IMG/VR virus record: IMGVR_UViG_3300009446_000003 | Coordinates: 1-49,440 of that record | DNA: 49,440 bases | From: a virus | Direction: 5' to 3' (one strand) | Part shown: positions 13,191 to 49,440 of the stretch, piece after piece | How positions within the stretch are numbered: position 1 is the first letter of the stretch | Layout of the letters: each line of letters begins with the position of its first letter | Notes under the pieces: model-generated | Database searches by the model: none | Told to the model about the DNA's origin: nothing | The model's input: only the letters and a program-made list of their open reading frames with translations | Program-made: the position numbers and the translations under genes

Positions 13191-13210
13191 AATATTTAAT
13201 CCTATTTTAT

Positions 13211-15845: not shown

Positions 15846-15940
15846 ATTGATATAAAGTTTTAAAGGTTGTGCGACTAATCGCTAATGTATATCAAAGATA
15901 ATATAAATTTTATAAACAAACAAATATTTGTTTGTTTGTT
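15846..15940 (-). promoter_or_regulatory. P cassette copy 5 (palindrome 15914-15937; GCGA..TCGC hairpin variant)
   Basis: Near-identical promoter/operator/leader sequence. Confidence 0.65.
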
Positions 15941-17072: not shown

Positions 17073-17170
17073 ATTAAAAATTAAGTTTTAAAGGTTACGC
17101 GGTTGATCCGCTAATGTATAACAAAGATAATCTAAATTTTATAAACAAACAAATATTTGTTTGTTTATTT
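17073..17170 (-). promoter_or_regulatory. P cassette copy 6 (palindrome 17143-17166)
   Basis: Near-identical promoter/operator/leader sequence. Confidence 0.65.
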
Positions 17171-17831: not shown

Positions 17832-17951
17832 ATTGATATAAGGTTTTAAAGGTTACGCGGTTGATCCGCTAATGTATAACAAAGATAATCTAGATTATCT
17901 TTGTTATACATTAGCGATTAGTCGCACAACATTTTAAACCTTTATATCAAT
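17832..17951. promoter_or_regulatory. P cassettes 7 and 8 fused back-to-back (divergent), containing a 50-bp perfect palindrome 17867-17916 and no AAAC operator
   Basis: Left leader (GCGG..CCGC variant) drives 17831<-; right leader (GCGA..TCGC variant) drives ->17952. The two TATCTTTG boxes are 8 bp apart. Confidence 0.65.
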
Positions 17952-18215: not shown

Positions 18216-18385
18216 AAATTTTGCCTATGGTGTAAGTGTTGACAGAATTTTGTAGCAAGATACGGACTATTTTTAAGATAAACAAACATTTGTTTATTTA
18301 TTTTAAATTATTTTTCAATGTGGACGGAATTTTGTAGCAAGATACGAACAAATTTTAAAACAAACAAACATTTGTTTATTTATTT
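18216..18385 (-). repeat. Two tandem R modules (inverted relative to 13211-13380)
   Basis: Cores at 18236-18277 and 18318-18360: (G/A)TGT(T/G)GAC(A/G)GAATTTTGTAGCAAGATACG(G/A)AC... Confidence 0.7.
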
Positions 18386-18414
18386 TAAAGGAAACTTGAA
18401 TTAAATATTTTTTG

Positions 18415-18513
18415 CAAAACAAACAAACAAATATTTGTTTGTTTGTAAAATTTGAATTATCTTTGATATACATTAGCGATTAGTCGCACAACCTTTAAAA
18501 AATTTATATCAAT
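18415..18513 (+). promoter_or_regulatory. P cassette copy 9: palindrome 18421-18444, TTTG(18434-18437)-N20-TATCTTTG(18458-18465), GCGA..TCGC leader hairpin
   Basis: Exact Bacteroidota -33/-7 geometry, with the -33 box inside the right palindrome arm. Confidence 0.7.
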
Positions 18514-18888: not shown

Positions 18889-18937
18889 AAACTACCAATA
18901 TCTGTAATAAAAAATTCAGTTATTGGTAGTTTTTTTT
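18889..18937 (+). terminator. Rho-independent terminator (AAACTACCAATA...TATTGGTAGTTT followed by a T-run)
   Basis: 12-bp outer stem plus a 3-bp inner stem; T-run through 18937. Confidence 0.8.
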
Positions 18938-18939
18938 AT

Positions 18940-19095
18940 ATTTGCAATGTGGACAGAACTTTGTAGCAAGATACGAACTATTTTTAAAATAAACAAACAA
19001 ATAAACATTTATTTTAAATTATTTTTCAATGTGGACGGAATTTTGTAGCAAGATACGAACTATTTTTAATATAAACAAACAAATAAACATTTATT
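18940..19095 (-). repeat. Two tandem R modules upstream of 19116..19676
   Basis: Cores at 18947-18990 and 19029-19070: ATGTGGAC(A/G)GAA(C/T)TTTGTAGCAAGATACGAACTATTTTTAA. Confidence 0.7.
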
Positions 19096-19115
19096 TTTGA
19101 AATTAATCAAAACTT

Positions 19116-21115: not shown

Positions 21116-21139
21116 ATAAACAAACAAATATTTAAAAAT

Positions 21140-30875: not shown

Positions 30876-31714
30876 TAAGTCAAATACATAATCTTATACC
30901 GTATTATGATTCACCAAAGGAATTTACTTTGTGTAATTGTCAAAATACTGAAACAACCGTAAGCATACACAAGAACTATACATTTAGTCAAGTTCTTGTG
31001 TTTGCTGGATTAACCAATCCTAGACAGGAAATTTTTTATTTGGTTAAGTACAATGCATGTTGCCAAATCATTTCAAAAACACCTATTGAACCGACTAGAA
31101 AGGGCGTTGTGATAAAAGGAAAGGATTACATTGTATTTGGTTTTAACACGAACATACTTCCTGTTGATTATGATGAAAATTGCTATTATGGTATAATGAT
31201 AGAAATGGCAATTATCAACCTTCTATTTCAAGAGCCATTTAAAATTACAAACGATATACCTAAATATGAATTTAAATACAGAATTTCAGATCAAGAAGCT
31301 TCAAAACTTGGTTGTTTTTCAGATGGATATTATCATACTGCATCTATACCTTATGGTTTAGTTAATCAAGGCAAGCCTATTGTGCAAACAAATGAGAAGC
31401 AAAACACAAAAGGAGAAAACAGAATTTTAAGCGGAACAATTCAAGGTGGGTATACTTTTTATTTCAGAGTAGATTGCTTTTCATACAATTCAATAAATGC
31501 ATTGAAATTATTTAATGACTTTTTGATTTGTTGTTATGATCCAAGTACTGAAAAACATGAGCCTTTGTATAAATTCAAATACATTGAACAACCAGAAATA
31601 GAATTGCCAACAAATTGCCAAAGACAGGAAGTTGCTATAAACTTTTATGGTGAAGCATGTTCTGTTTATCATGAAAAAAACGATTCAACATTTATTAACA
31701 AAACGCCTGAGTAA
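30872..31714 (+). CDS. Tail-associated structural protein (Cys-rich)
   Basis: 280 aa; ATGA overlap with the upstream gene. Confidence 0.4.
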   Translation: MISQIHNLIPYYDSPKEFTLCNCQNTETTVSIHKNYTFSQVLVFAGLTNPRQEIFYLVKYNACCQIISKTPIEPTRKGVVIKGKDYIVFGFNTNILPVDYDENCYYGIMIEMAIINLLFQEPFKITNDIPKYEFKYRISDQEASKLGCFSDGYYHTASIPYGLVNQGKPIVQTNEKQNTKGENRILSGTIQGGYTFYFRVDCFSYNSINALKLFNDFLICCYDPSTEKHEPLYKFKYIEQPEIELPTNCQRQEVAINFYGEACSVYHEKNDSTFINKTPE

Positions 31715-33101: not shown

Positions 33102-33734
33102 ATGATACACAAGTTAATTGACAAGAGCAATAAACGCCATACGGCAACTACGATTGCTAAAAGAGACGCATTAGTTAAGGGTGGAATGCGTATTGTTCCA
33201 GATACACCAAAAGAATTGAAAATAAACATTTTTGCTGAAGATGGTTTTTTGGATTTGTGCGAAAAATCCAAAATAGACCCTTCTGATATTAAGCCAACAG
33301 GTGATGGTGGTAAATTTTTACTTGAAGATGTTGAAACTCATATTCTAAAAATGTATAAAGAATATGAGAAAGTTAAAGCGGATAAGCTAAAGGCTAAGAA
33401 GAAAAAGGCTAAGAAGAAAGTTAAAGCGGATAAGACCAAAGGAACTGCTAAAGCGGATAAGACCAAAGGAACTGCTAAGACGGCTACTAAGACGACAGCT
33501 ACCAAAGGAACTGCTAAGACGGCTACTAAGACGACAGCTACCAAAGGAACTGCTAAAGCGGATAAGACCAAAGGAACTGCTAAGACGGCTACCAAGACGG
33601 CAGCTACCAAGACGGCAGCTACCAAGACGGCTACCAAGACGGCAGCTACCAAAGGAACAGCTACCAAAGGAACAGCTACCAAAGGAACAGCTACCAAAGG
33701 AACAGCTACCAAAGGAAGTGCAGAAACAGAGTAA
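33102..33734 (+). CDS. Protein with a PSBD/HeH-like motif and a C-terminal histone-H1-like K/T/A repeat tail
   Basis: IDPSDIKPTGDGGKFLLEDVETHI resembles the peripheral-subunit-binding/HeH pattern (l..v.GtGpgGrI.keDv). The C-terminal 110 aa is KADKTKGTAKTATKTTATKGTA repeats. Confidence 0.5.
   Translation: MIHKLIDKSNKRHTATTIAKRDALVKGGMRIVPDTPKELKINIFAEDGFLDLCEKSKIDPSDIKPTGDGGKFLLEDVETHILKMYKEYEKVKADKLKAKKKKAKKKVKADKTKGTAKADKTKGTAKTATKTTATKGTAKTATKTTATKGTAKADKTKGTAKTATKTAATKTAATKTATKTAATKGTATKGTATKGTATKGTATKGSAETE
33385..33715 (+). repeat. K/T/A coding repeat (third locus of this repeat family)
   Basis: GCTACCAAAGGAAC(A/T)GCT and AAGACGGC(A/T)(G/A)CTACC units, shared with 338-728 and 1966-2190. 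Confidence 0.8.
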
Positions 33735-35048: not shown

Positions 35049-36242
35049 ATGACGGCTATAAAAATAGAGCTAGGCTCTAATTGCAAGTACTCACCTAAAA
35101 AAGTTAAGCGCGTCATGGGCGCAGTTTTCAAAAAATACAAAGATAAAGATTATTTGAAATCAAGCTTCCCTGAGTTCACTAAGTTATCAAATTCATCATC
35201 TATGGTCGTTGATCCTGAAATGATGGACGGTTTATTTATTTGCCCTTCAAACTCTGAATTAAAACTATGGACTGCCAATATTGACGGCTGTATAGTTCCA
35301 ATTCGAGAGTGTGGGGAAATTACAATAAATGCTAATGGTGAATGTCACTCTGTTCAAGATGATGGTATTAAATTGAAAGAGGAATGTGCTATTTTGACAG
35401 GTAGTTTTTGCTTTGAAACTCACTCTATAACAATAGATGAGACTAAGTGCAAAAAAACAAACTTAGACATGACTGAAATCATTTCTCTAACGCTTGACAC
35501 GTTGAGAAAAAGTGCAGACTTGGAATTATCAAAAGTTATGTATAATTGCTTAGAGGAAAGTATTGATATACTGTCAATAGAAGAAGAAAATAAATTCAAT
35601 CAGCTAATGGCTGGTACTGGTGTTGTTTTTGGAGATGGTTGCATTCAGGTTCCTAATGGAATCACACAGGAAATTCTTTTGAAGTTATGCATAGCTGACG
35701 AACACCTTTGTTTGAATTTACTAGATAGAATGATTATTGATTCTAATAATTTTTTAGAATATTCAATAATTAAAGACAGTACCGAGAAGGGTACTTGCTG
35801 TAATTACTACAGTGTCATGGATAAATACGGTGAGTACTGTAAAGGTTCAAAGGCATTTAGTAAGTATAATAAATCAGAAACTTATTTTGTTAGTCCTGGT
35901 CACATTAATTATGTAAACTACACTGGTGTATCAAATACACTTGCTAGTCCTGAGTTGCTTAGAAGTAATATCCAAAACAAATTGTTTAGATTTGTTATAC
36001 CTTCACAAGTGCAAACTTGGAGAAAAAACTCTAATGGTACAAGTTCAGTTGTTCCTGTGCTGTATACAGTTGATTGGGAAACTAAGTGCTTACAGGGCAA
36101 TGTTCATGACAAAAAGCATTGTATTAAACTTACGCATGAGGGTGGAATTTACCAGTCTCCTAGCTACAAGAATTTATTTGGAGAAAAAGAGCATTGCGGA
36201 GCTTTTAAGATGATAAATCTTGCTAATTTGAAAGCGGCTTAA
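35049..36242 (+). CDS. Putative major capsid protein (Cys-rich, 18 Cys in 397 aa)
   Basis: Size and position after the scaffold-like gene. No motif-level support. Confidence 0.35.
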   Translation: MTAIKIELGSNCKYSPKKVKRVMGAVFKKYKDKDYLKSSFPEFTKLSNSSSMVVDPEMMDGLFICPSNSELKLWTANIDGCIVPIRECGEITINANGECHSVQDDGIKLKEECAILTGSFCFETHSITIDETKCKKTNLDMTEIISLTLDTLRKSADLELSKVMYNCLEESIDILSIEEENKFNQLMAGTGVVFGDGCIQVPNGITQEILLKLCIADEHLCLNLLDRMIIDSNNFLEYSIIKDSTEKGTCCNYYSVMDKYGEYCKGSKAFSKYNKSETYFVSPGHINYVNYTGVSNTLASPELLRSNIQNKLFRFVIPSQVQTWRKNSNGTSSVVPVLYTVDWETKCLQGNVHDKKHCIKLTHEGGIYQSPSYKNLFGEKEHCGAFKMINLANLKAA

Positions 36243-36276
36243 TAATGTATTATTAATATAAAAAAATTGACTACTC

Positions 36277-37440
36277 ATGTGTATAGATTGTTGGACTGGA
36301 ATTGTTGGGATAACTAAGGCGTATAAATGCAAAACCAAAAAGCTGCCTAAAGGTTACAATATAAGCATGAGTGGTCAATATTTAGTCGATGGTGAAGAAG
36401 GTATCGGAAACCTTATTGAGATACCAAAAAAAATTGGCGGTGTAGTTTGGGATACAATAACTACGATGAAGCCTGAAGCAGTCATGGACCTTCGCTTGCT
36501 TTTGTTGAAAGAATTGTCTAATAAATCAAATGCATCTGATTATAGTGAACATAGACTTGGAATTGAACCTGATGATGGTGTTTGTGTTTGTGAAACTAAT
36601 AAAACTGGAAGATATACAGTAATTAAGATAAATCCATTAAAACATGATGGAAGGATTTGGGATATTAGTAAGTTGGGATTGCGTTTAGATGAAGTAGGTT
36701 TTTACAATGTAAAAATATACGAAAAACGACAATACGATTTGTGTAAATTAGACTGTGCTATTTTTGAGGATGAAATTGAGATAACAGAACCTTATGGATT
36801 AGGTTATATTACTGGTGATACTTTTGAACTTTTTGATGGAATCAGCAGGGGGAAGGGTTATGTTATTGTAGTAGACACAGGGGAAGCGTTGCCTGTTAAA
36901 ACATATATCAGAAAACCGCCATGTTGCGGAAGGTCTGAGCCACATTTAGCAACATGGGAAAATGAACTGGAAATAACTGCATTTATCACTGATGATTTAT
37001 GTGAAACTACAACTAAGTGTTGTACTGATAATACTACAGGGGGGGTTTTCATGAACTTTTCTTTGTGTTGTGACATTTTGCATTTTATATGTGATAAAGA
37101 TGCTTCGTTTTTTTCTGGAACATTACTTGGTACTAATATCGCAAGAGCATTAAAAATGCTTTGGGCATCTAAGATACTATTTAATACATACACAAATGAT
37201 GAACTTTTTAATGCTGCAACATTTGGAGAAGAAAGAGGTAAGGGAGTTGGCAAGGCAAAAATGTTAAGAAATAGAGTAATTCAAAGAGAAACAAAATCCG
37301 ATGGTACACAAATAATGAGTCTAATTGAATGCATATGCATGGATATTCAAAATTTAGGACTTGATTGTTTTGAATATGAATCACAAATTCAATATTCGCA
37401 ATTAAATACCAAAAAACGAGTTAGCGGTAACGCTTTTTAA
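36277..37440 (+). CDS. Structural protein (second capsid/virion candidate, Cys-rich)
   Basis: 387-aa ORF in the late block. Confidence 0.35.
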   Translation: MCIDCWTGIVGITKAYKCKTKKLPKGYNISMSGQYLVDGEEGIGNLIEIPKKIGGVVWDTITTMKPEAVMDLRLLLLKELSNKSNASDYSEHRLGIEPDDGVCVCETNKTGRYTVIKINPLKHDGRIWDISKLGLRLDEVGFYNVKIYEKRQYDLCKLDCAIFEDEIEITEPYGLGYITGDTFELFDGISRGKGYVIVVDTGEALPVKTYIRKPPCCGRSEPHLATWENELEITAFITDDLCETTTKCCTDNTTGGVFMNFSLCCDILHFICDKDASFFSGTLLGTNIARALKMLWASKILFNTYTNDELFNAATFGEERGKGVGKAKMLRNRVIQRETKSDGTQIMSLIECICMDIQNLGLDCFEYESQIQYSQLNTKKRVSGNAF

Positions 37441-37478
37441 ACAAACAAATATTTATATAATTTAAAAAAAAATAGATA

Positions 37479-38030
37479 ATGTCAAATTTAGGAATTAAGC
37501 CATTTGGTCACGGAACTAAATCAAGAAGAAATACAAGGATAACAACCGATAATTTAGACCCAAATATATTTGGTCTTGTTCAAATGCCAGACGGAGAGGT
37601 TTGCAATATTGTAACAACAAAAAGAATAAATGCATGTATAAATGAAACATGTGCCAGTGAACCAGACAAGGCACTTGGTGATCCTGCAACTGCCAAAGTA
37701 ACTAGTCAATTCAAGTTGTCGGAAACTTATTGGACCTTGTACCCAAATGCACTTGTTTTTGTGCATTACATAGATGCTGTAAATGTTTACTTTTTTAATT
37801 GTGCGACAAATCAATTAGAGCTTTGTCTTTGTGTTGATAGGTATGATAACGCAGGTGATCTAACTTTGAGTTATAACAAGCATAATCCAGATTATTTGAA
37901 AAATATGATTGAAACATGTTTTAAGGAAATGATGGAAAGAATAGGCATTCCAATTGATCCTGTTACTAGTGCAACTGGTGCAACTGCTGTCAAAAACAGT
38001 GTTCTTAACAAATTAACTGAAAAATCTTAA
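37479..38030 (+). CDS. Hypothetical structural-module protein
   Basis: 183-aa ORF preceded by AAACAAACAAATATTTATATAATTTAAAAAAAAATAGATA. Confidence 0.45.
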   Translation: MSNLGIKPFGHGTKSRRNTRITTDNLDPNIFGLVQMPDGEVCNIVTTKRINACINETCASEPDKALGDPATAKVTSQFKLSETYWTLYPNALVFVHYIDAVNVYFFNCATNQLELCLCVDRYDNAGDLTLSYNKHNPDYLKNMIETCFKEMMERIGIPIDPVTSATGATAVKNSVLNKLTEKS

Positions 38031-38035: not shown

Positions 38036-40684
38036 ATGAAGTATTTATTTAAATTATTACTATTTGTTTGTGCATTCAATTCTATGAATGCACAAACTTT
38101 TTTGGTAAATGAATGGTATAGTATAGATTGCGCAAAAGGGTATGAGACAAATATATTATATTTTTGTCTATGTGAAGATGTAGAAGAAATGTATATTGAT
38201 TCTGTAAAAGTTGAACCTGTTCAAAGTGTTGTGAATTGGGCGTACTTAGCTAACTTGCCTGAAGTTGATTTTAGTTTTAATGGAATTACTCAAACTGGAC
38301 ATGTTATAACTTACAAGGCACTTGATTGTATTTATAGGGTAGGATTTGTAATTGATGATAATTGTGCGCCATTATGTTATGATTGTCCAAAAGGTGAATC
38401 TTGTAGTTGTGAGTGTGATAATATCATTCCTTGCAATACTGATTGCAGTACTGGAAACCTTGAAGTTTTTGACAATGAAATTTGTGAATGTGTTTTATAT
38501 CAAATTTCAAGTAATGGATGCACTGATATAACTGCTTGTAATTATGACCCATTTTCTAACTGTGATGATGGTTCTTGTATCTATGAATCAAATTTTCAAT
38601 GTAATACCGATTGCAGTACTGGAAACCTTGAAGTTTTCTCTAATGAGCAATGTGATTGTATATTGTTAGAAGTCTCTGTATTTGGCTGCAATGACGCTAC
38701 TGCTTGTAATTATGATCCATTGGCTAATTGTGACGATGCTTCTTGTAATTTTGGCAATACTGCTTGTCCAGACCCTTGCAATGTCTTATTTGGCTGCAAT
38801 GACGCTGCTGCTTGCAATTATGATCCATCTGCTAATTGTGACGATGGTTCTTGCAATTTTGGCAATACTGCTTGTCCAGACCCTTGCAATGTCTTATTTG
38901 GCTGCAATGACGCTGATGCTTGTAATTATGATCCATTGGCTAATTGTGACGATGGTTCTTGTAATTTTGGCAATACTGCTTGTCCAGACCCTTGCAATGT
39001 CTTATTTGGCTGCAATGACGCTGCTGCTTGCAATTATGATCCATTGGCTAATTGTGACGATGGTTCTTGCAATTTTGGCAATACTGCTTGTTCGGACCCT
39101 TGCAATGTCTTATTTGGCTGCAATGACGCTGCTGCTTGTAATTATGATCCATCTGCTAATTGTGACGATGGTTCTTGCAATTTTGGCAATACTGCTTGTC
39201 CAGACCCTTGTAATGTCTTACTTGGCTGCAATGACGCTGCTGCTTGTAATTATGATCCATCTGCTAATTGTGACGATGGTTCTTGCAATTTTGGCGATGG
39301 CTGCAATGACGCTGCTGCTTGCAATTATGATCCATCTGCTAATTGTGATGATGGTTCTTGTGTTTATTGTCCAATCGGGGGAATTTGTGAAAATGGTGAT
39401 TGTTTTTGCCCAGATTGCAATACTGATATTTTAGTTAATGGCATAAGTACATGTGTCAATGTATGTGGTAGCACTTCTGACTCATTGAATTGTCCAGATT
39501 TTTGTGAATCTTTTACATGTCCAGATGGCAGTTTAGTAGTTGATTGCTTTGAGTGCTATTGTGTTGATCTTGAATTGTTTGTTGATTTTTCTACCTCAAT
39601 GTCTTTTGAGGGAATTACTGGACAGACATTGATGGCTGAAACACTTCAGGGTGTTGGTCAATTGATACAAAATTTAGGAATAAATTATCCTAATAAATTT
39701 TCATTAACGGTTTACTCTTATTCTAGTCAAGAGCATGCAGGTATTCTACTTGAATGCGTAATTGTTAATGAAAATAATAAGGATGAACTTTCTGATTTTT
39801 TCGTTACTGAAATATGTAATGATATTACTGCATACATACCAAATTGCGGTGTAAATAGCTCGTGTACCTGCGGAAATACATATCCATTTTATGCTTTGCA
39901 ATTAGCAGAGCCTTACGAGGGTTGTGTTAATTGTACAGATGAAAGTACAATACCAATGTTATTGATCATGACAGATGGTTCGTTTAACGAAAGTTCTTCC
40001 ATGATTAATACTGTAGAAAATTGGTTTAATAATTTGCCAGTCGCTCAACAAATAAATGCACAAACAGTAGGTATACAATTTGCTAGTGATGAAGAATGTG
40101 ATGTAAGTGACGGAATGAAGGCATTTGGAAGTTATTACGGCGGACCTAGTGTTTATTGTGGAAATGATATTAATGATCTTTTTTCTAATGCAATAGAGCT
40201 GTTGTGTAATAATAAATGTGTTCAATATCAAGATTTACTTGTTTGTAACCCTTGTGATGATGGAGAGCTTTTTTTAAATGGTATATGTAGTGAAAATAAA
40301 AGATTAAAAAATGGTAATTGCAGTCATTATTTTAGTGGATATGAAACTTCTACTGAGTATTGTGTAAATGAATTTATAAATATTGAATGTTCAAATTATA
40401 GTATTGATGAAATTTGTTATTCAAAATGTAGTTGTGAGGATTCGTTTAAAATTCCATTTTCTAATACAAGAAGCGATGGCTTTTTAGAAGTGTCAGTTTG
40501 CGCTCCAATATGTGATATTGGTAAATATTGGAATTTTGTCACAAATAATTGTGAATTTATTTGTGAAGAGGGTTATATGATTTACGTAAATGGAGAATGC
40601 AAGCAATTTATTGATTGTAATGATGAAAATTGTATTAATATTGTAAATGATTCTATTAATAAAAAATGTTACTGTAATGATTAG
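38036..40684 (+). CDS. Secreted, extremely Cys-rich protein with tandem CNYD...CDDGSC modules and a vWA-like domain (MIDAS DFSTS)
   Basis: Signal peptide MKYLFKLLLFVCAFNSMNA|Q. At least 8 copies of GC(N/T)DxxACNYDPxxNCDDGSC, six of them as 36-aa exact-period repeats. FVDFSTSMS matches DxSxS. About 105 Cys by rough eye count. Confidence 0.7.
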   Translation: MKYLFKLLLFVCAFNSMNAQTFLVNEWYSIDCAKGYETNILYFCLCEDVEEMYIDSVKVEPVQSVVNWAYLANLPEVDFSFNGITQTGHVITYKALDCIYRVGFVIDDNCAPLCYDCPKGESCSCECDNIIPCNTDCSTGNLEVFDNEICECVLYQISSNGCTDITACNYDPFSNCDDGSCIYESNFQCNTDCSTGNLEVFSNEQCDCILLEVSVFGCNDATACNYDPLANCDDASCNFGNTACPDPCNVLFGCNDAAACNYDPSANCDDGSCNFGNTACPDPCNVLFGCNDADACNYDPLANCDDGSCNFGNTACPDPCNVLFGCNDAAACNYDPLANCDDGSCNFGNTACSDPCNVLFGCNDAAACNYDPSANCDDGSCNFGNTACPDPCNVLLGCNDAAACNYDPSANCDDGSCNFGDGCNDAAACNYDPSANCDDGSCVYCPIGGICENGDCFCPDCNTDILVNGISTCVNVCGSTSDSLNCPDFCESFTCPDGSLVVDCFECYCVDLELFVDFSTSMSFEGITGQTLMAETLQGVGQLIQNLGINYPNKFSLTVYSYSSQEHAGILLECVIVNENNKDELSDFFVTEICNDITAYIPNCGVNSSCTCGNTYPFYALQLAEPYEGCVNCTDESTIPMLLIMTDGSFNESSSMINTVENWFNNLPVAQQINAQTVGIQFASDEECDVSDGMKAFGSYYGGPSVYCGNDINDLFSNAIELLCNNKCVQYQDLLVCNPCDDGELFLNGICSENKRLKNGNCSHYFSGYETSTEYCVNEFINIECSNYSIDEICYSKCSCEDSFKIPFSNTRSDGFLEVSVCAPICDIGKYWNFVTNNCEFICEEGYMIYVNGECKQFIDCNDENCINIVNDSINKKCYCND
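38681..39365 (+). repeat. 108-bp in-frame tandem repeat, about 6.3 copies
   Basis: TTTGGCTGCAATGACGCT... recurs at 38681, 38789, 38897, 39005, 39113 and 39221, with a truncated unit at ~39294. Confidence 0.9.
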
Positions 40685-41156
40685 ATATTTATTTATTTGT
40701 TTATTTATTTGTTTATTTATTTGTTTATCTTGTAGTGTTAATGCACAAACAGAAGTTGACGAATACATAAACATTACTTGTTATACTGAGAATGCAAAAT
40801 TTGATTTGAATACATTTTGTACTTGCAAGGAAATTGGTATGATAACAATAGGAGGTGAGCAATGTCATGTTTGCTTTAGTCAATATACTCCTGAGCTTTT
40901 GTACAATAATTACCAAATGGAATATTTTACATATAAAGATATTCCCATTTTTGGATATGTTGTAAATTATGATTGCAGTGCGAATTGCAAAACGGATAAA
41001 TGCACATACAATATAGGTGTTGTTTTATCAAACTGCAATTTGATTACAAGCTGTCCAGAGGGAAAGGAACCTAAATGCACCTGTGACGTGCCTTTATGTA
41101 ACGTAGAATGTAAAAACGGTGGTGTTTGCAATGACAGAAAATGCCTTTGCAGATAG
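40677..41156 (+). CDS. Secreted Cys-rich protein
   Basis: ATG at 40677 overlaps the upstream stop (ATGATTAG). Signal peptide MIRYLFICLFICLFICLSCSVNA|Q. Confidence 0.6.
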   Translation: MIRYLFICLFICLFICLSCSVNAQTEVDEYINITCYTENAKFDLNTFCTCKEIGMITIGGEQCHVCFSQYTPELLYNNYQMEYFTYKDIPIFGYVVNYDCSANCKTDKCTYNIGVVLSNCNLITSCPEGKEPKCTCDVPLCNVECKNGGVCNDRKCLCR

Positions 41157-41190
41157 TCACATATTTATAAACAAACAAACAAATATTACT

Positions 41191-42525
41191 ATGAAATTTT
41201 ATTTATTATTGTTGTCTTTTTTATTATTATTTTTCGATGCTAATGCACAAGATCAAGGGCAAACAATTGAAGTTAATGGTTGCACTATTGTAGCCACAAA
41301 CACATCAGGTTCAGCCTGTTATCTTACGCCATGCTTTACTTATCAAGTCGTAAATGGAATACTTACCGTTTATGATGCTTCGATGCAACCATTGACTTTT
41401 ACTGAAGGTTCATTGGGGTGTCCAATTGATTCTATGATAAGAGTTTTGAACGATGTAAACAGATATTGCTGCTTTGGATTTTGTGATGATTGCGGTGAAT
41501 TGTTGGGAATATCCGAAAAACCAATTACGCCAACTGAATGCGATCCTATCGCTTGCGCATTGGTTAGATGTGCTGAAGGCTTCGAGCCTAAATGCAAAGA
41601 TGGTACTTGCATTTGTTCACCTATTCCAGAGCCAGAGGTTTACAAATCTGCAAATATTTCAAAAAATGCATCCGAAAACTTTTACAATGGCATTGATTCA
41701 GAGGTTATTTATACTATAGAAGTCTGTAATGATGGAACTGAATTTATTAACAATATAAATGTTTCTGAATACATACCTAGTGAATTATTATATAACTCTC
41801 ATTCTGTTGAAGGTCAAAATAATCATCCAACATTTAACCCTTCAACTGGAATTTGGAGCGTATCAAATCTATTTGCTGGACAATGTAGGGTTTTGTCATT
41901 ATCTTTTATAACAACTGTTGCTAAAGTAAATATAACTAATATGGCAATTATGGAAGTTTTAGATAACGGTCAAGTTGATACTGTTTTGAATATAATTCCA
42001 GATTTGCCATGCAAATTTTGCAGTCAATCAAACACATGGGACAATAACAGTAATATAGATGGAACTGGTCCTCCTGTTGTAATCGGTGGTTATATTAATT
42101 ATCCTAGTTGGGCGTTTGAAAGACCTTCAGGACAAATTGGCGTTGGTACAGGTGAATATAAATTTGATTATTATATTTATTGCAATGATACATGTTATTT
42201 AGATAATGTAAATTTTTCTATATCAAATACTCCTAATTTTTGGGTTTCTACTGCTGATGAAATTAATAAAATACTATCATTATTAACTGGTGATAACTGG
42301 TATTTTGGAAGCTCACAACAAAGTATTGATAATAATGATAATACTGCTAAATATTCAGTTTCCAGTACATCATGTGGGTGTAATTTAGAAGGGTTTGGGT
42401 TTTCTGAAATTGGATCAAGTGAATTGATGCATGTTAGTGTAAATAGCCACTTGCATAAAAGTTGTGAAAGTATAGGGATTAGCACAAAACCTACTTGCAA
42501 GATAGGTGGACCAACAAGAAATTAA
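41191..42525 (+). CDS. Secreted Cys-rich protein with a DUF11-like (conserved repeat domain) segment
   Basis: Signal peptide MKFYLLLLSFLLLFFDANA|Q. VIYTIEVCNDGTEFINNINVSEYIPSELLY...GIWSVSNLFAGQCRVLSL resembles the DUF11 pattern. Confidence 0.6.
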   Translation: MKFYLLLLSFLLLFFDANAQDQGQTIEVNGCTIVATNTSGSACYLTPCFTYQVVNGILTVYDASMQPLTFTEGSLGCPIDSMIRVLNDVNRYCCFGFCDDCGELLGISEKPITPTECDPIACALVRCAEGFEPKCKDGTCICSPIPEPEVYKSANISKNASENFYNGIDSEVIYTIEVCNDGTEFINNINVSEYIPSELLYNSHSVEGQNNHPTFNPSTGIWSVSNLFAGQCRVLSLSFITTVAKVNITNMAIMEVLDNGQVDTVLNIIPDLPCKFCSQSNTWDNNSNIDGTGPPVVIGGYINYPSWAFERPSGQIGVGTGEYKFDYYIYCNDTCYLDNVNFSISNTPNFWVSTADEINKILSLLTGDNWYFGSSQQSIDNNDNTAKYSVSSTSCGCNLEGFGFSEIGSSELMHVSVNSHLHKSCESIGISTKPTCKIGGPTRN

Positions 42526-42564
42526 ACAAACAAATATTTATTTTATAAAATTAAAGTTAGAGAG

Positions 42565-44091
42565 ATGAAAAATTTATTAATTCTAAGCACTTTTTTGTTA
42601 TTGATTGTATCTACTTTTGGTTGTAGTGCATTTACAGAAATTATTAAAACTCAATTGCCAGAATGTACCATCAAGATTGGTGATGTTGTAGAAACTATTG
42701 ACGGTACAGAACAGGTAGTTACTAAGGTTCTTTTGGATTGCAAGGTTAAGACAAATATAAATAACATAATTAGTCCAAGTGAATATAGAATACTTGATAC
42801 AGATGTTTCTTTTGAATGTGGTATAAAAGAAGTTCCACAAAGTATAATTGATGTTGCACCTTCGGGTTATATCAACTTTGCTAATCAATATTTTGCACCA
42901 GATTTTATACACCAAATTTTCCTAAAAGAAGGAACAACTAGGAATCAAAAAAGATGGTTAACGGATTGTTCTGGAGCTTTTCAGAATTTTTGCAATTTTA
43001 GATATGAATTTGTTGAAGATGTGGGCGAAGCTACATCTTACATAGACATAGATAGAAAAAATACAGGTAGTTGGGCTTTTGTTGGAACAGACCAAACTTT
43101 AGTACTTAGTGGTGAAAAAAGACCTACTTTGCAATTGGAATATAGAGACTTTTTAGATGTGTTAATTGAAAACGATTACTATGTTGACACCAAAGAGGGG
43201 AAAATGCATATTTCTGAAATATTTGGCTTTGATCCATTTAAAACTATAAATATTGATGGATTCTCATGGCGTAATTCACAGGTTGAAAAATTTGCAAGAC
43301 TTGGTATAACTGAAGAAATGACATCTGTTACAAGAATGTTGTTAGTTACTTACCATGAGTTTTTACATGCTTACTTTGCGTCACTTCATCCGCATTTGCA
43401 TCCTAATTTATTTTTTGAATCGACATACCATGAGATTGTAAAGAAAAATTTCAACTCTATTGATGCTTGTATGATGATAGAAAAGAAAAAAGAATGTAGT
43501 GGTAAGGAATTGGATTTTACAGATAAGATAGACAAATACAGTTGTTTGTGGTATTACTTTCCAGAAGAAGCATTCGCAAGTAATCAAAAGGAATTTGCAA
43601 ATTTGTATAACTTTTTTATATCTAGCGGTGACTCTATGAATGCAGTTGAAAGATACCCTTTAAAACCCGTTAATGACTGTCCTAATGAATGTAGTACTTT
43701 TTTCGATATATCAAAAAAGTCAATAGACAATTATTTGTTTCAGTGCAAACAATCAGATAAGATACAATACAGGTTATTTAATTCAAAAGTAAAACCTGTT
43801 ACTAAATCCGATAAAGCACAACAGGCTGCGCACTTTTTTTATAAACTATCTTGTGAGCCTATGCTTGTAAAAGGAAATGATAATAAAGAAATAAACTTTG
43901 GTCCTTTGCCCCTAGAATATTTAAGGGAAATATACTTGGGGTTAGATCAAGAAATTGAAACTACTGAATCACTTATCTTATCTATCATTAATGCAGTTGA
44001 TAAAATTGGTATTTACAAGTCTGATGGTATAAAATTTACACCTGAGAAAGTTAAGCAGCATATTGCCTTCAAATCAAAATACTTCAACTAA
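42565..44091 (+). CDS. Putative lipoprotein with an HExxH zinc-metallopeptidase motif
   Basis: N-terminus MKNLLILSTFLLLIVSTFGC (lipobox-like). LLVTYHEFLHAYFASLHPHLHP contains HEFLH followed by more His residues. Confidence 0.5.
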   Translation: MKNLLILSTFLLLIVSTFGCSAFTEIIKTQLPECTIKIGDVVETIDGTEQVVTKVLLDCKVKTNINNIISPSEYRILDTDVSFECGIKEVPQSIIDVAPSGYINFANQYFAPDFIHQIFLKEGTTRNQKRWLTDCSGAFQNFCNFRYEFVEDVGEATSYIDIDRKNTGSWAFVGTDQTLVLSGEKRPTLQLEYRDFLDVLIENDYYVDTKEGKMHISEIFGFDPFKTINIDGFSWRNSQVEKFARLGITEEMTSVTRMLLVTYHEFLHAYFASLHPHLHPNLFFESTYHEIVKKNFNSIDACMMIEKKKECSGKELDFTDKIDKYSCLWYYFPEEAFASNQKEFANLYNFFISSGDSMNAVERYPLKPVNDCPNECSTFFDISKKSIDNYLFQCKQSDKIQYRLFNSKVKPVTKSDKAQQAAHFFYKLSCEPMLVKGNDNKEINFGPLPLEYLREIYLGLDQEIETTESLILSIINAVDKIGIYKSDGIKFTPEKVKQHIAFKSKYFN

Positions 44092-44285
44092 TGCCACAGA
44101 AATTTTATAATTTTTTTCATGGAAAATTAATTATTTTTATTGGATTTATTTCTGGTGGAACTTTCATGACAATAAATTGGGATAGTGTTGCGACTAATTG
44201 CGTAATTACAATATGTACTGTGACAATTGGATTGATAGGGCAATATATATCTAATAATTATATTAAAAGAAAAGAAGATGCTTGA
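44091..44285 (+). CDS. Holin-like small membrane protein (2 TM helices, charged C-terminus)
   Basis: 64 aa; TAATG overlap with the upstream gene; KLIIFIGFISGGTF and NCVITICTVTIGLIGQYI helices; C-terminal KRKEDA. Confidence 0.45.
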   Translation: MPQKFYNFFHGKLIIFIGFISGGTFMTINWDSVATNCVITICTVTIGLIGQYISNNYIKRKEDA

Positions 44286-44604
44286 TATTTACAAAGGTTT
44301 TGAGACTGCATTAACAATGTATGTAAATTATCCTTTTTTGGTAATAATGACATGTATAGGTATAGCAGTTACTATTTCGGGAATAAATAAATTTAAATTT
44401 GGTAGTATTAGAGTTATTAAATTTTGGTGGGTTGTTTTCTTTTCTGTTTTAGCATCTATTCCTATATGTGAAATGGAATGGTTTGGTGCAACTGGTGAAC
44501 AGCTTGCATTTACTATTATGGTTGGTTCAGCATCATTTGAAGGATTGTCTTTTCCAATAATGAAATTTTTGAAAATAGAAAAAAGATTTAGCTATGAAAA
44601 ATAA
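44278..44604 (+). CDS. Holin-like / membrane protein (3 TM helices)
   Basis: 108 aa; 8-nt overlap with the upstream gene; three hydrophobic helices. Confidence 0.45.
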   Translation: MLDIYKGFETALTMYVNYPFLVIMTCIGIAVTISGINKFKFGSIRVIKFWWVVFFSVLASIPICEMEWFGATGEQLAFTIMVGSASFEGLSFPIMKFLKIEKRFSYEK

Positions 44605-45673
44605 ATATTTATTTATTTATATTTTGATTGCACTGACTAACTGTAATTTTGCATTTAGTCAGTGCGAAACTGAGCAAGTAGATAATACTGGTTCAGTCTG
44701 CATAATTCCAGTTTGTGATATTGAAAAGTATTTTGATATTTCAGGATTGGAAAATAATACACAGGTAGAACTGGAAAATGGAACGCTTTATATATTGACC
44801 TCTATAAATGCGGAAGAAATAAAGGCATTGCGTGAATCTTGTTGCTACCCTTGTTGTAACATACAGATACCAGAACATCCGACAGCAATTAGTATTGATA
44901 ACTTCGATGATATTGTATTTCCAGAACATCCAGAGATACCAGAACATCCGACAACGATTAGTATTGACAACTTCGATGATATTGTATTTCCAGAACATCC
45001 AGAGATACCAGAACATCCGACAGCAATTAGTATTGACAACTTCGATGATATTGTATTTCCAGAACATCCAGAGATACCAGAACATCCGACAGCAATTAGT
45101 ATTGACAACTTCGATGATATTGTATTTCCAGAACATCCAACAGAATTTGGCATAAATTCTAGTTGTGATAATCCAGTTTTTACAGTTGGTTGCAATGACG
45201 AAAAAGTAATATCAATACTGGAAGCAATGACGAAATGGCTTAGTATTATTTCGGCAGAACAAAAAGAACAAATTATTCTTTTGCAATTTCAGTTAGATAG
45301 TTGTTGTAATAAAATTTCAACTGAGAATACGACTATAGGAAATAATTTATTTTTTGGATTCGTGGATAATGCTGGAAATATTATAAATGGAAGTAATAAT
45401 TTTTCAATTGTAAAAGTATCAACTGGTTTTTTTCGTGTTATTTTCAATTCTCCATGTCCATCTAATCGGTATGCGGTAACTACTGGTGTTACTGAAGATT
45501 TTACAAATAGAGATGTTGTTAAAATATCCGTAGTAGAAGGATCAAGAACGGCAATTAGTTTTGATCTTATGTTAACTACAGATGATAATGGACAAAATGC
45601 AGATGTTTTAACAGATGCAGATTTTAGTTTTTCAGTTATAAAAGAAAAGACAATAACTACTATAAAAAACTAA
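44594..45673 (+). CDS. Secreted protein with four 23-aa IPEHPTAISIDNFDDIVFPEHPE repeats
   Basis: Signal peptide MKNKYLFIYILIALTNCNFAFS|Q; 69-bp tandem repeats. Confidence 0.6.
   Translation: MKNKYLFIYILIALTNCNFAFSQCETEQVDNTGSVCIIPVCDIEKYFDISGLENNTQVELENGTLYILTSINAEEIKALRESCCYPCCNIQIPEHPTAISIDNFDDIVFPEHPEIPEHPTTISIDNFDDIVFPEHPEIPEHPTAISIDNFDDIVFPEHPEIPEHPTAISIDNFDDIVFPEHPTEFGINSSCDNPVFTVGCNDEKVISILEAMTKWLSIISAEQKEQIILLQFQLDSCCNKISTENTTIGNNLFFGFVDNAGNIINGSNNFSIVKVSTGFFRVIFNSPCPSNRYAVTTGVTEDFTNRDVVKISVVEGSRTAISFDLMLTTDDNGQNADVLTDADFSFSVIKEKTITTIKN
44867..45142 (+). repeat. 69-bp in-frame tandem repeat, 4 copies
   Basis: ATACCAGAACATCCGACA... recurs at 44867, 44936, 45005 and 45074. Confidence 0.9.
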
Positions 45674-45697
45674 CTTCATCTAGCTTTAATTAATTTT

Positions 45698-45731
45698 AGA
45701 CACGCACTACATGTATTTGTTTTGCGTGTCT
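45698..45731 (+). terminator. Hairpin terminator AGACACGCA-N16-TGCGTGTCT
   Basis: 9-bp perfect stem 25 nt after the stop codon, followed by ATTTAT. Confidence 0.55.
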
Positions 45732-45753
45732 ATTTATATAAAAACGATATAAT

Positions 45754-46638
45754 ATGAGATATTTATTTATTTGTTTGTTTATTTGTTTGCTTTGCAATGT
45801 TAATGCACAAACAAATATTGATAGTATTTGCATAAAAATGATTGCAACTCCATTGAATCCAATTAGTGTTGAGCTTGGTAACTTAGCTTTTCATGATGCT
45901 GGTCTTACTCCTTTGGGCAATACATCTTGTGCAAGTTGCCACAATACATATAATGCTCATTTGGCGGTTGATGGCTTCCAAATAGGCATAGGTGGTGGGG
46001 TTTCTGGTGGTCGTAGAATTGATTTGCAATACTTTCCTGAACAAGTACAAAAAGATATTGTAAAAATGATAAATAATTCAAGATTTACACCGACTTCTTT
46101 AGTTCACTCGAAAACAGAAAGAGTAGGTATAAATGGTGCTATGACACCAATGACACAGGCTAGTTTGGAATTTGGTTTTACTGCACACACTTATGTTGTT
46201 GAAAATTGCCACAATAACGAAGTTTATGAGCATTACTTAAAATTACTTACAGGACGTACTAAAATGAAGGAATCAGACCTATCTAATAGCATAGTAGACT
46301 ATGAGATGGATGATGCTATAAGATGGCTTTTAAGCACTGATTATGGTCAATATCTAATCGGTCAATACAAACTTTCAAAACAGGAGATCAAGGCAAAGCA
46401 AATTTTTGAAAAAGATTGTGCAAGTGGTTGTCACGGTACGGGCACTTTTAAAGGTGATACACCGATTGATTCAATACAACCTACTTCAATCATTGGTTCT
46501 TGGGATAAAAAGCTTAAAGGTCGTGATATGGAATACAAGACTAATAGCGGATTTTTGAAAGATCATTGCAAAAAAATAGGAATCGAATACAAAAAAGATG
46601 TTTTGAAATTCATAAAATTACTATCTGTAGAAAACTGA
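45754..46638 (+). CDS. Secreted di-haem cytochrome c peroxidase / MauG-family-like protein
   Basis: Signal peptide MRYLFICLFICLLCNVNA|Q. LGNLAFHDAGLTPLGNTSCASCHN matches the CCP N-terminal haem motif (lG..LFfD..LS.....sCasCH). The second site DCASGCHG is CxxxCH rather than CxxCH. Confidence 0.65.
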   Translation: MRYLFICLFICLLCNVNAQTNIDSICIKMIATPLNPISVELGNLAFHDAGLTPLGNTSCASCHNTYNAHLAVDGFQIGIGGGVSGGRRIDLQYFPEQVQKDIVKMINNSRFTPTSLVHSKTERVGINGAMTPMTQASLEFGFTAHTYVVENCHNNEVYEHYLKLLTGRTKMKESDLSNSIVDYEMDDAIRWLLSTDYGQYLIGQYKLSKQEIKAKQIFEKDCASGCHGTGTFKGDTPIDSIQPTSIIGSWDKKLKGRDMEYKTNSGFLKDHCKKIGIEYKKDVLKFIKLLSVEN

Positions 46639-46811: not shown

Positions 46812-46867
46812 TTGCATTTATACCTTAAATGCAAAACCGTTAACATTCTATTGTTGACGGTTTTTTT
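46812..46867 (+). terminator. Two adjacent hairpins (46812-46834; 46835-46862), the second followed by a T7 run
   Basis: TTGCATTTA-N5-TAAATGCAA, then AACCGTTAACA-N6-TGTTGACGGTT plus TTTTTTT. They lie about 200 nt after the nearest upstream stop codon. Confidence 0.6.
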
Positions 46868-46880
46868 ATTTCCAAATTGT

Positions 46881-46979
46881 AAAATAAACAAACAAATATT
46901 TGTTTGTTTGCAAAATTTAGATTATCTTTGTTATACATTAGCGGAACAACCGCATAACCTTTAAAAACTTTATATCAAT
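46881..46979 (+). promoter_or_regulatory. P cassette copy 10: 24-bp AAAC palindrome, TTTG(46899-46902)-N20-TATCTTTG(46923-46930), leader hairpin GCGG-AACAA-CCGC (46941-46953)
   Basis: Exact -33/-7 geometry; ATG at 46980. Confidence 0.7.
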
Positions 46980-47393
46980 ATGGAAAGTAAGCAGAATGAA
47001 ATACAAAATTTAAGAATTGAACACTTTGAGTCGGTAATAAGTGATACGCATTTGCAAATAGATACAAACATGAGAATTGCTAAGTCTTTAGAATCTAGTG
47101 AATTAGTTGATTTGGAAACTTGGAAATTGGACTGTTTTAAATATAAGATTAAGTGCCTATATGATGTTCGGTCATATGTTTGTTTAGGAGAAAAAGGCGT
47201 TTTTAGTGATTATAGAGATTTGTGTATCCGTTTGATATGTGACGATCTACAAGGTTATGAAATTCAGGTAATCAGAGATGTTTTGGGATTGATTAGAAAG
47301 GTTCATCGTATTATTGGTAAAAATAATAATGGATTAATATATAGTAAAATATCTGATAAAAAAGTACACTTAATATTGCACTTAAATTCTTAA
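46980..47393 (+). CDS. Hypothetical protein (P-cassette driven)
   Basis: 137-aa ORF directly after ...TTTATATCAAT-ATG. Confidence 0.55.
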   Translation: MESKQNEIQNLRIEHFESVISDTHLQIDTNMRIAKSLESSELVDLETWKLDCFKYKIKCLYDVRSYVCLGEKGVFSDYRDLCIRLICDDLQGYEIQVIRDVLGLIRKVHRIIGKNNNGLIYSKISDKKVHLILHLNS

Positions 47394-47399: not shown

Positions 47400-47497
47400 C
47401 AAAAACACAAACAAACAAATATTTGTTTGTTTGTAAAATTTAGATTATCTTTGTTGTACATCAGCGATTAGTCGCACAAAATTTTAAACCTTATATA
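47400..47497 (+). promoter_or_regulatory. P cassette copy 11: palindrome 47408-47431, TTTG(47421-47424)-N20-TATCTTTG(47445-47452), hairpin GCGA-TTAG-TCGC (47463-47474); drives the rep operon
   Basis: Same family; followed by 47498..47902 and rep. Confidence 0.7.
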
Positions 47498-49234: not shown

Positions 49235-49327
49235 TCATCATTTTCATTATTGTTGATTATTACATCATTATTACAAATATTATTACGTGCCTATAATAAA
49301 ATGATAATCAAATGATTGTATCTTTTT

Positions 49328-49440
49328 AAACGGGTAAAGAGGGATGTTTAAACGGGTAAAGAGGGATGTTTAAACGGGTAAAGAGGGATGTTTAAACGGG
49401 TAAAGAGGGATGTTTAAACGGGTAAAGAGGGATGTTTAAA
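49328..49440 (+). repeat. Iteron array (five 22-bp copies plus a 3-nt partial); the same physical array as 11-142 on the circular map
   Basis: AAACGGGTAAAGAGGGATGTTT at 49328, 49350, 49372, 49394 and 49416. Confidence 0.9.

Follow-up and report, generated by a model that had tools for sequence, protein, structure and literature searches.

When phages encode exported proteins, the gene in question is usually a lone small moron or one for an exclusion lipoprotein. In lambdoid phages, genes for proteins with Sec signals are found in the late region, as is the case for stxAB beside the lysis genes and for lom/bor of lambda, and Stx is folded in the periplasm before it is released by phage lysis. 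Among phages of Bacteroidota, those of Porphyromonas gingivalis ('Nixviridae') encode five proteins of unknown function carrying signal peptides that follow the so-called Q-rule (Matrishin et al. 2023, PMC10367356). Here, we describe a cluster of eight co-oriented genes at positions 38036-46638 of the virus record IMGVR_UViG_3300009446_000003, of which positions 1-49,440 were analyzed (49,440 nucleotides (nt); this whole stretch is called the window). With 8.6 kb, or 17% of the genome, the cluster forms the final part of a long + strand operon that carries packaging and virion genes upstream; an earlier note on this DNA had described it as embedded in the late region. It encodes six proteins with export signals (p882, p159, p446, p508, p359 and p294) and two small membrane proteins (p64 and p108) (Table 1). 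From its sequence, we propose that it is an accessory module that acts on the envelope or is released by lysis and that is fused to the lysis genes, rather than a set of tail fibers assembled in the cytoplasm, a reading to which we assign a probability of about 0.6.

Six of the eight cluster proteins start with a short K/R n-region, a single N-terminal hydrophobic segment and a cleavage-type c-region, and contain no further transmembrane (TM) segment. These signals were called by rules, with cleavage sites chosen by eye, and are found in 6/8 cluster genes versus 1/53 other genes (Fisher p = 3.4e-6). The open reading frames (ORFs) lie where the earlier note had placed them, and the N-terminal signals that it had read on six proteins are borne out, with four NA↓Q termini, one FS↓Q terminus and one lipobox-like terminus, all six of which were seen. 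In p882, p159, p446, p359 and p294, the K/R n-region and h-region are combined with small or otherwise acceptable residues at -3/-1 and with Gln at +1, as in Sec-dependent substrates of signal peptidase I (SPase-I) that follow the Q-rule. Gln is thereby present at +1 in 5/5 SPase-I-type sites, the chance of which is 3e-8 at the genome Gln content of 3.1% for sites placed by eye. Gln at +1 is found in a mean 71% of Bacteroidetes SPase-I substrates, whereas most Chlorobi stay below 9% and Chlamydiae and Spirochaetes typically below 20% (PMC5837995). Since all five sites carry this residue, we regard these N-termini as genuine host-adapted signal peptides, chance hydrophobic N-termini being very unlikely.

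The cluster is also rich in Cys, at 6.7% compared to 2.2% in other late genes and 1.8% in early genes. The two types of C-terminal sorting domain of the type IX secretion system (T9SS), type A (PF18962/TIGR04183) and type B (PF13585/TIGR04131), gave no match in the six proteins at E <= 0.1. Considering the host-specific signal peptides together with a lipoprotein-like signal in p508, a c-type heme protein (p294; attachment of c-type heme is an extracytoplasmic process), the ~100 Cys of p882 and modules otherwise seen in signal-peptide-bearing surface proteins (CNYD, DUF11/CLIPPER), all six proteins are, as judged from these features, very probably exported. The sole other signal-bearing gene of the phage encodes a lipoprotein in the early region (6020-6490, ...LILQS↓CEKQKDFEQD), in which the Cys is followed by an acidic stretch that we take to resemble the Bacteroidota surface-lipoprotein export signal; this protein has no family match in NCBIfam, PADLOC or PHROG, and is a candidate superinfection-exclusion protein.

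Table 1. Coordinates of the cluster genes and of other features (window positions, unless another assembly is named; ↓, predicted cleavage site; aa, amino acids)
Feature	Positions	Strand	Description
p882	38036..40684	+	882 aa, 102 Cys in mature part; MKYLFKLLLFVCAFNSMNA↓Q (MNA↓Q; -3/-1 = M/A, Met at -3 atypical); signal peptide aa 1-19, orphan N-domain aa 20-150, eight CNYD units aa 161-460, orphan middle region with D517xSxS...T615...D647, Cys-rich orphan C-terminus
108-bp tandem DNA repeat	38679..39295	+	5.7 copies, 95% identity; encodes 36-aa CNYD units
p159	40677..41156	+	159 aa, 17 Cys in mature part; MIRYLFICLFICLFICLSCSVNA↓Q (VNA↓Q; -3/-1 = V/A); start overlaps p882 stop by 8 nt
p446	41191..42525	+	444 aa; MKFYLLLLSFLLLFFDANA↓Q (...FFDANA↓Q; ANA↓Q; -3/-1 = A/A); signal peptide, Cys-rich N-region, DUF11/CLIPPER Ig-like domain, orphan C-terminal half
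p508	42565..44091	+	508 aa; MKNLLILSTFLLLIVSTFG↓C (...IVSTFG↓CSAF, lipobox-like); lipoprotein-like signal STFG↓C; HEFLH aa 264-268; ORFan
p64	44091..44285	+	64 aa; two TM segments; charged C-terminus KRKEDA; start overlaps p508 stop (ATGA)
p108	44278..44604	+	108 aa; two strong and one weak hydrophobic segments; charged C-terminus
p359	44594..45673	+	359 aa; MKNKYLFIYILIALTNCNFAFS↓Q (AFS↓Q; -3/-1 = A/S); signal peptide, Cys-rich N-region, PEHP repeats, helical segment, C-terminal ~100-aa domain
p294	45754..46638	+	294 aa; MRYLFICLFICLLCNVNA↓Q (VNA↓Q; -3/-1 = V/A); signal peptide; C59ASCH and C222ASGCH
Hairpin	38066..38097	+	perfect 13-bp stem then UUUUUU; -23.7 kcal/mol, z = -4.8
Hairpin	44630-44665		in p359 signal-peptide codons, just past preceding stop; -23 kcal/mol, z = -5.2
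Hairpin	45697..45732	+	p359/p294 intergenic, 10-bp outer stem; -19.4 kcal/mol, z = -4.3
Terminator-like hairpin	46833..46874	+	13-bp stem and T-run, z = -5.3; closes the long + strand unit
~100-bp promoter element	13136-13167, 13848-13879, 14374-14405, 15217-15248, 15893-15924, 17122-17153	-
~100-bp promoter element	18434-18465, 46899-46930, 47422-47453	+
15-mer AAACAAACAAATATT, examples	214-228, 9213-9227, 21118-21132, 37439-37453, 41173-41187, 42524-42538
Rep3-type plasmid initiator	47903-49234		followed by the 22-bp iterons
22-bp iterons TTTAAACGGGTAAAGAGGGATG	8-145 and 49325-49440		5-6 perfect copies per window end, continuing across the ends
Repeat-variant loci in other assemblies	L006 5840-6988; L007 5620-6561 and 1715-2182

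The closest analogues of this cluster would be, in kind, the Q-rule proteins of the P. gingivalis phages and, in organization, stx and lom/bor, and its arrangement may likewise be compared to that of cor/llp of other phages. With the lambdoid late cargo (stxAB, lom/bor), it shares the presence of Sec-signal proteins in the late region, beside lysis or tail-fiber genes, but it differs from that cargo by the lack of any sequence or domain similarity, by encoding six proteins instead of one or two, by another host phylum and by having no detected toxin-like domain. With the P. gingivalis phages (PMC10367356), it has in common that Bacteroidota phages encode proteins of unknown function with a predicted SPase-I cleavage exposing Gln, and in both cases these are read as using the general secretion pathway of the host to alter the envelope. 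In contrast, the genes described here are gathered in a single uninterrupted stretch of 8.6 kb that ends the virion operon, with holin-like genes lying among them, and specify an extreme Cys content, a c-type di-heme protein, T9SS-cargo-type repeats and a CLIPPER domain.

The phage genome itself (~49 kb, with a G+C content of ~30% over the whole window) is complete or nearly complete and circular or circularly permuted, and is that of a tailed phage with a plasmid-type Rep3 replicon. Iterons adjoining the Rep3-family initiator suggest a plasmid-like replicon and a circular genome, and the same genome was assembled from three independent samples with 99.8-100% identity in a permuted form, in which the genes of the window start come after Rep. 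In the window, genes were recognized for an Erf-like annealing protein, a helicase, a topoisomerase-like protein and a large terminase (TerL); a 910-aa protein without Cys occupies the tape-measure position, and almost nothing in the virion region was recognized by Pfam or PHROGs. No tRNAs and no Rfam matches were found in the window, and no integrase, repressor or endolysin was recognized anywhere in the genome by Pfam or PHROGs.

Four independent lines drawn from sequence indicate that the host is a member of the Bacteroidota, probably of a Flavobacteriia-like kind. First, the pattern TTTG-N17-23-TAnnTTTG, which we take to be the Bacteroidetes -33/-7 promoter form, has 17 matches versus 6.7 expected, 9-10 of which fall within one conserved ~100-bp element. 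Second, the homologues of the p882 CNYD units mostly have T9SS C-terminal domains, and those that carry names come from Flavobacteriales. Third, among phages, the topoisomerase-like protein is closest to proteins of Flavobacterium psychrophilum phages (39% identity). The Q-rule signal peptides are the fourth line, and the best-covering matches of Rep, which sit on Bacteroidota plasmids, point the same way. This case also shows that the host phylum of uncultivated phages can be read from the Q-rule as a marker.

In the middle of the cluster, the p64/p108 pair is translationally coupled to the lipoprotein p508 upstream and to p359 downstream, with overlaps of 1-11 nt between these four genes. 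In addition to this coupling, p64 and p108 resemble holins in the arrangement of their TM segments and in their charged tails, the position is a usual one for lysis genes, and no endolysin was recognized elsewhere in the genome, all of which favors an account in which the core of the cluster is a phage lysis cassette, with p508 as a lytic enzyme exported by Sec/Lol and tethered to the membrane, or as a spanin-like protein, p64/p108 as holin and antiholin, and flanking proteins that are unrelated. This account is compatible with an exported module. Against it stand the absence of any lysin, spanin or holin family match, the fact that HExxH enzymes are, to our knowledge, not a usual endolysin class, the four further secreted proteins that it leaves unexplained and the lack of a C-terminal TM segment in p508, which consequently is not a unimolecular spanin; we therefore hold the lysis cassette to be possible and put it forward tentatively. 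The holin-like character given to the two small proteins in the earlier note accordingly stands for their TM layout and charged tails, not for a family assignment.

As for p508, which had been described as an HExxH lipoprotein, both the motif and a lipobox-like site are present. Its Cys position fits a lipobox, but the T-F-G that precedes it differs from the classical L-(A/S)-(G/A) box. The metallopeptidase role also given to it in the earlier note was not confirmed: this ORFan has no peptidase family match, nor any other match in Pfam, NCBIfam, PHROG, PADLOC or the PDB, and since HExxH appears in 1.3% of p508 shuffles, HEFLH is weak evidence when 61 genes are considered. p508 matched only itself among 1.84 billion representative proteins and nothing by tblastn against phages. 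AlphaFold 2 (AF2) was run on the single sequences of p508 and p882 because there were no homologues for an alignment, and the p508 model was unusable, with a mean predicted local distance difference test (pLDDT) score of 35.8.

The largest protein, p882, combines an orphan N-domain with eight counted CNYD units, six of which stem from the 108-bp tandem repeat (5.7 copies), so that its label as a CNYD-repeat protein is well founded. The CNYD units match >5000 cellular proteins, mostly with PF18962 or PF13585 T9SS sorting domains. With these Bacteroidota T9SS cargo proteins, p882 shares ~300 aa at 35-50% identity (E down to 1e-181) and an N-terminal signal peptide, but it has neither a Por_Secre_tail (PF18962/TIGR04183) nor a CHU_C (PF13585/TIGR04131) sorting domain, and its N-terminal, middle and C-terminal parts are without homologue among the best 120 matches. 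Two CNYD-like units (GCKDSSANNYNPYAN...GCQY and GCTDTLATNYNPSAN...GCQY) are also found in gp232 (3575-5125) of the cyanophage Synechococcus phage S-CAM3 (NC_031906), annotated as 'virion structural protein', and the CNYD mini-domain is therefore not confined to cellular exported proteins. 

The von Willebrand factor A (vWA) label that had also been given to p882 was not upheld. Residues in the order of a metal-ion-dependent adhesion site (MIDAS) are present as a pattern only (D517-F-S-T-S, T615 and D647, with a T-to-D spacing of 32), and D and T are 98 residues apart, which is more than is usual for a vWA MIDAS. No vWA profile (PF00092, PF13519, PF13768 and others) gave a Pfam match, either with p882 at E <= 0.1 or with aa 505-723 alone at E <= 10, and no sequence match was found in the PDB at E <= 10. 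When the PDB was searched by Foldseek with the AF2 single-sequence model of p882, whose confidence (mean pLDDT 41.8) is too low for the matches to be meaningful, none reached E <= 0.001 and the 50 matches listed included no vWA. 

The neighboring p159, which has a (LFIC)3 h-region and an EGF-like Cys pattern at the protein end, resembles the p882 N-domain (BLASTP, 30% identity over 163 aa, E = 1.6e-14), including when both are compared without signal peptides (Smith-Waterman z = 11.3); as judged by these alignments, it is a stand-alone paralogue of that domain.

The third protein of the cluster, p446, has a single DUF11/CLIPPER domain at ~aa 156-255 (PF01345, 1.1e-10, 42.2 bits versus a gathering score of 24.6; TIGR01451 at 1.5e-4), in agreement with its earlier designation as DUF11-like. 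Its start needs correction, with 41191 being most likely instead of 41131 as in the JGI call; it was placed there because a 15-mer motif that recurs upstream of gene starts (see below) lies directly upstream, at 41173-41187. CLIPPER has been described as a stalk domain of signal-peptide-bearing fibrillar adhesins (PMC12617251). p446 resembles these stalks by a PF01345 match within a signal-peptide protein and differs from them in that the domain is single and not tandem, and in that no adhesion or sorting domain was recognized on either side. Candidate residues for the isopeptide triad (K...E...N) were seen by eye only, and tblastn against phages gave nothing. A shared N-domain of p446 and p359 was considered and ruled out (Smith-Waterman z = 1.1, BLASTP E = 0.9).

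At the downstream end of the cluster, p294 matches PF03150 (CCP_MauG) over aa 38-185, with 32.7 bits versus a gathering score of 25.6 (E = 1.4e-7), and carries CASCH and CASGCH, in line with the di-heme peroxidase/MauG-like label of the earlier note. Its first heme site, C59ASCH, is canonical, and weak matches to bacterial di-heme cytochrome c peroxidases (bCCPs) in the PDB are centered around it. The second site, C222ASGCH, is CX3CH, so that one of the two sites is not a CXXCH; it lines up with the second CXXCH of 3o5c when one inserted residue is allowed for, and may still bind heme. The FWDGR-type motif that is usual in this family was not seen by eye in p294. With the bacterial di-heme CCP/MauG/MbnH superfamily (PF03150), p294 shares the Pfam match, the first CXXCH with its flanks and the signal peptide that all members have. 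In contrast, mature p294 is ~276 aa long when the matched PDB chains of solved bCCPs have 308-345 aa, it is phage-encoded, it matches only itself in a collection of 5.8 billion proteins, and a tblastn search of 50,697 phage records gave nothing at E <= 1. It also lies far below every NCBIfam subfamily cut-off and fits no NCBIfam subfamily, the best weak matches being MbnH-type and MauG-like models (TIGR04039 (MbnH), 3e-6, 26.4 bits versus a cut-off of 362.85; another model, 24 bits versus 340). From its sequence features, p294 is thus a divergent and short member of the bacterial di-heme cytochrome c peroxidase/MauG family.

Among the members of the CCP_MauG family are enzymes that modify proteins, for example MauG and MbnH (PMC6405878), and the MbnH-type and MauG-like models are those that p294 approaches best. 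The partner proteins would share its compartment, and their genes are co-oriented and adjacent. These points speak for a single functional system of the kind raised in the earlier note, in which the MauG-like p294 would oxidatively mature or cross-link the Cys-rich partners and the HExxH lipoprotein would process them. However, no link beyond adjacency was found, p294 is set off from the other cluster genes by an 80-bp gap holding the strong 45697-45732 hairpin, its NCBIfam scores are far under the subfamily cut-offs (26 versus 363 and 24 versus 340 bits), its second site is CX3CH in a protein shorter than solved bCCPs, with no FWDGR-type motif seen by eye, p508 is without peptidase family match, and no homologous locus was found. 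We thus consider such a system most improbable.

The genes of the cluster are overlapping or closely spaced, and u183, p882 and p159 abut or overlap. The conserved ~100-bp element precedes the minus-strand early genes and heads + strand units; its copies are ~90% identical and contain a perfect palindrome (half-sites AAACAAACAAAT and ATTTGTTTGTTT) and a Bacteroidetes-type TTTG...TATCTTTG promoter, so that, by sequence, they look like a co-regulated promoter set with an operator. On the + strand, no copy was found between 18434 and 46899, hence none inside the cluster, and TTTG..TAnnTTTG had no match upstream of any cluster gene. A sigma-70 promoter scan was uninformative (88 found versus 95 expected), as expected for a Bacteroidota host. 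The 15-mer AAACAAACAAATATT has 67 occurrences with <= 2 mismatches versus 2.4 expected, mostly on the + strand and 3-40 nt upstream of starts, including one upstream of each of p446 and p508, and may serve this phage as its own signal for gene starts, translation or promoters. 

Since no copy of the promoter element lies inside the cluster, the latter looks co-transcribed with the virion genes, and we infer that this co-transcription is possibly graded by attenuating hairpins and that the cluster is unlikely to be an independently expressed moron. The hairpin at 38066-38097 sits in the signal-peptide codons of p882, 36 nt past the stop of the upstream gene, and is terminator- or attenuator-like in sequence, and the repeated promoter element at 46875-46986 directly follows the hairpin at 46833-46874. 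When genes were ranked by the predicted stability of their first 90 nt, p359, p882 and p294 came 1, 2 and 5 of 61. The signal-peptide codons of these three genes form strong hairpins (38066-38097, 44630-44665 and 45768-45817), in which h-region codons GTTTGTGCATT are the reverse complement of c-region codons AATGCACAAAC (NAQT), and in p159 and p294 the codons for the LFICLFIC signal peptides correspond to the 15-mer AAACAAACAAATATT in reverse complement. Such hairpin-forming signal codons could be attenuators within coding sequence, or repeat-derived signal peptides. 

This organization bears on the possibility, included in the earlier note, that the cluster is lysogenic-conversion cargo of the moron type, made in cells that carry the phage as a plasmid-prophage and altering their adhesion, surface or peroxide tolerance. 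The Rep3 initiator and the 22-bp iterons suggest a plasmid-like carrier state, adhesin-type modules and a peroxidase-family protein are present, separate units could be bounded by the hairpins at 38066, 45697 and 46833, and lambda lom/bor and many morons are precedents. A moron would have its own promoter and terminator: terminator-like hairpins are found at 38066 and 46833, but no promoter-like element, either of the conserved type or of the TTTG..TAnnTTTG form, lies inside, and the composition is not foreign. Moreover, cluster genes overlap or abut upstream virion-type and holin-like genes, no integrase or repressor that would mark a temperate phage was recognized, and, lacking a T9SS sorting domain, the adhesin-like proteins would be barred from the route by which Bacteroidota usually bring such proteins to the cell surface. 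Codon usage is also fully ameliorated (relative synonymous codon usage of the cluster versus the rest of the genome, r = 0.94-0.95), and a foreign, recently acquired island was rejected on this basis. Lysogenic conversion is therefore not favored, and we regard it as unlikely.

The cluster was also compared between the three samples. The sole differences are in-frame changes in copy number: the PEHP repeat is present in 4 copies here and in 5 and 2 copies in the other two samples, always in frame, and the p159 signal peptide has (LFIC)3 here, whereas the ENA contig has (LFIC)2. Within the CNYD repeat array, the assemblies of both other samples break. Since the repeat variants are in frame in three samples, the reading frames of the cluster are maintained, and the repeat regions behave as length-variable spacers. 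Exact-protein look-ups returned only the same phage from the three samples, at 99.8-100% identity. Beyond this phage, no megablast match was found in INPHARED, and TerL gave ~30% identity matches only, on short IMG/VR contigs. There were no relatives of u397, u387 or the p159/p882-N-region alignment in IMG/VR, none of u322 or Rep in JGI metagenome contigs, and nothing for TerL or p882 in GTDB genomes. A defense role was considered with PADLOC, which gave one insignificant match only.

Several observations weigh against an exported, lysis-linked module. The slot after the tail genes is the usual site of receptor-binding proteins, and CNYD-like units occur in the cyanophage 'virion structural protein'. 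The C-terminal part of p359 (aa 256-353) matches three PHROG families, two of which are annotated tail fiber (phrog_3484, 1.7e-5; phrog_27810, 3.9e-5; phrog_11355, 3e-4), and the order of N-domain, repeats, helix and C-terminal domain in this protein is fiber-like. In the JGI call, p882 starts at M17 and its signal is absent, the ENA and Logan calls having the long form. The lysis assignment is pattern-based since no endolysin was recognized in the genome and p64 and p108 match no holin family in Pfam or PHROG, being holin-like by pattern only. In addition, Bacteroidota promoters within the cluster could be too degenerate for the search pattern, and no related phage was found in the above searches. 

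Part of this evidence favors a reading of the proteins as tail fibers, receptor-binding proteins or virion decorations, with N-termini that are unused for export or with periplasmic folding followed by joining after lysis. The cluster directly follows tail-module-like genes; p359, with its tail-fiber PHROG matches, and p882 are modular proteins with repeats whose copy number varies by sample; p159 duplicates the p882 N-domain, as shared anchor domains do; CNYD-like units are found in the S-CAM3 protein; and no other protein of the genome is recognizable as a fiber. The PEHP-repeat label of p359 was itself confirmed, with four 23-aa repeats encoded by a 69 bp x 4.0 tandem repeat (44865-45139). 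Tblastn of p359 against the 50,697 phage records and a separate homologue search with its C-terminus gave no match, and the other five exported proteins show no tail-fiber homology. 

On the other side, five SPase-I-type N-termini have a full n/h/c layout and the host-specific Gln at +1, the lipoprotein-like p508 and the c-type heme protein p294 misfit cytoplasmic assembly, and oxidative folding is implied by the 102 Cys of p882. Furthermore, we know of no tailed phage that exports tail parts through Sec, and signal-less Cys-rich proteins encoded upstream (35049-38030) are available as fiber candidates. Tail fibers or other virion proteins thus appear quite unlikely. Five such signal-less late proteins (610, 280, 397, 387 and 183 aa, at 29043-31714 and 35049-38030) contain 3.8-4.7% Cys and CC pairs; this is ~2x the genome average and unusual for cytoplasmic proteins, and these are candidates for the real tail-tip or fiber proteins. 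A mixed account, in which p882, p446 and p359 (p159 being an N-domain copy) would be receptor-binding or adhesin proteins that are folded oxidatively in the periplasm and that attach to tails after lysis or act as exported decoys, with p294 oxidatively maturing one of them, is in our view very unlikely, and Sec-dependent extracytoplasmic maturation of host-recognition proteins of tailed phages has no precedent known to us. The earlier view of an exported module rather than tail fibers is thus strengthened by the export signals and weakened by the tail-fiber PHROG matches of p359 and by the CNYD-like cyanophage protein, and is partly supported.

If the cluster is indeed an exported, lysis-linked module, one would expect the six proteins to be translocated by Sec late in infection. 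The five SPase-I substrates would then be cleaved, probably leaving pyroglutamate ends, all six would be oxidatively folded and p294 would receive heme, with maturation in the periplasm or, for p508, anchoring in the membrane. Since no T9SS signal is present, the proteins would be retained in the envelope up to the lysis set off by the holin-like pair, and would then act on the envelope or debris, or be released along with the virions. Any function beyond export is one that we infer: adhesin-like binding by p882, p446 and p359, a peptidase or lysis role of p508 and a peroxidase or protein-oxidizing role of p294 are guesses. One sixth of this phage genome would in that case be devoted to six large, disulfide-rich, host-style secreted proteins. 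Should these proteins act on the envelope or be set free by lysis, they would represent a new type of phage cargo for the Bacteroidota, a phylum with a major part in carbon turnover in aquatic habitats and in the gut. The presence of even one of them on the virion would challenge the rule that tailed-phage particles are built wholly from cytoplasmic proteins.

Other repeated DNA elements were observed elsewhere in the window. A perfect 25+25-nt palindrome (half-sites CGCTAATGTATAACAAAGATAATCT and AGATTATCTTTGTTATACATTAGCG) is located at 17867-17916, between divergent gene blocks, and looks, by sequence, like two back-to-back -7 boxes at the switch from minus- to plus-strand genes. An 82-bp unit is found in approximately two tandem copies at each of three intergenic sites (13209-13362, 18237-18389 and 18936-19097), in both orientations and with 90-94% identity. 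Finally, a low-complexity DNA repeat rich in K/T/A codons (AAGACAGCTACCAAG...) is shared by three unrelated genes (336-734, 1972-2193 and 33389-33721), which are the first ORF, the gene of the Erf-like protein, where it encodes the C-terminus, and the gene of a 210-aa late protein.

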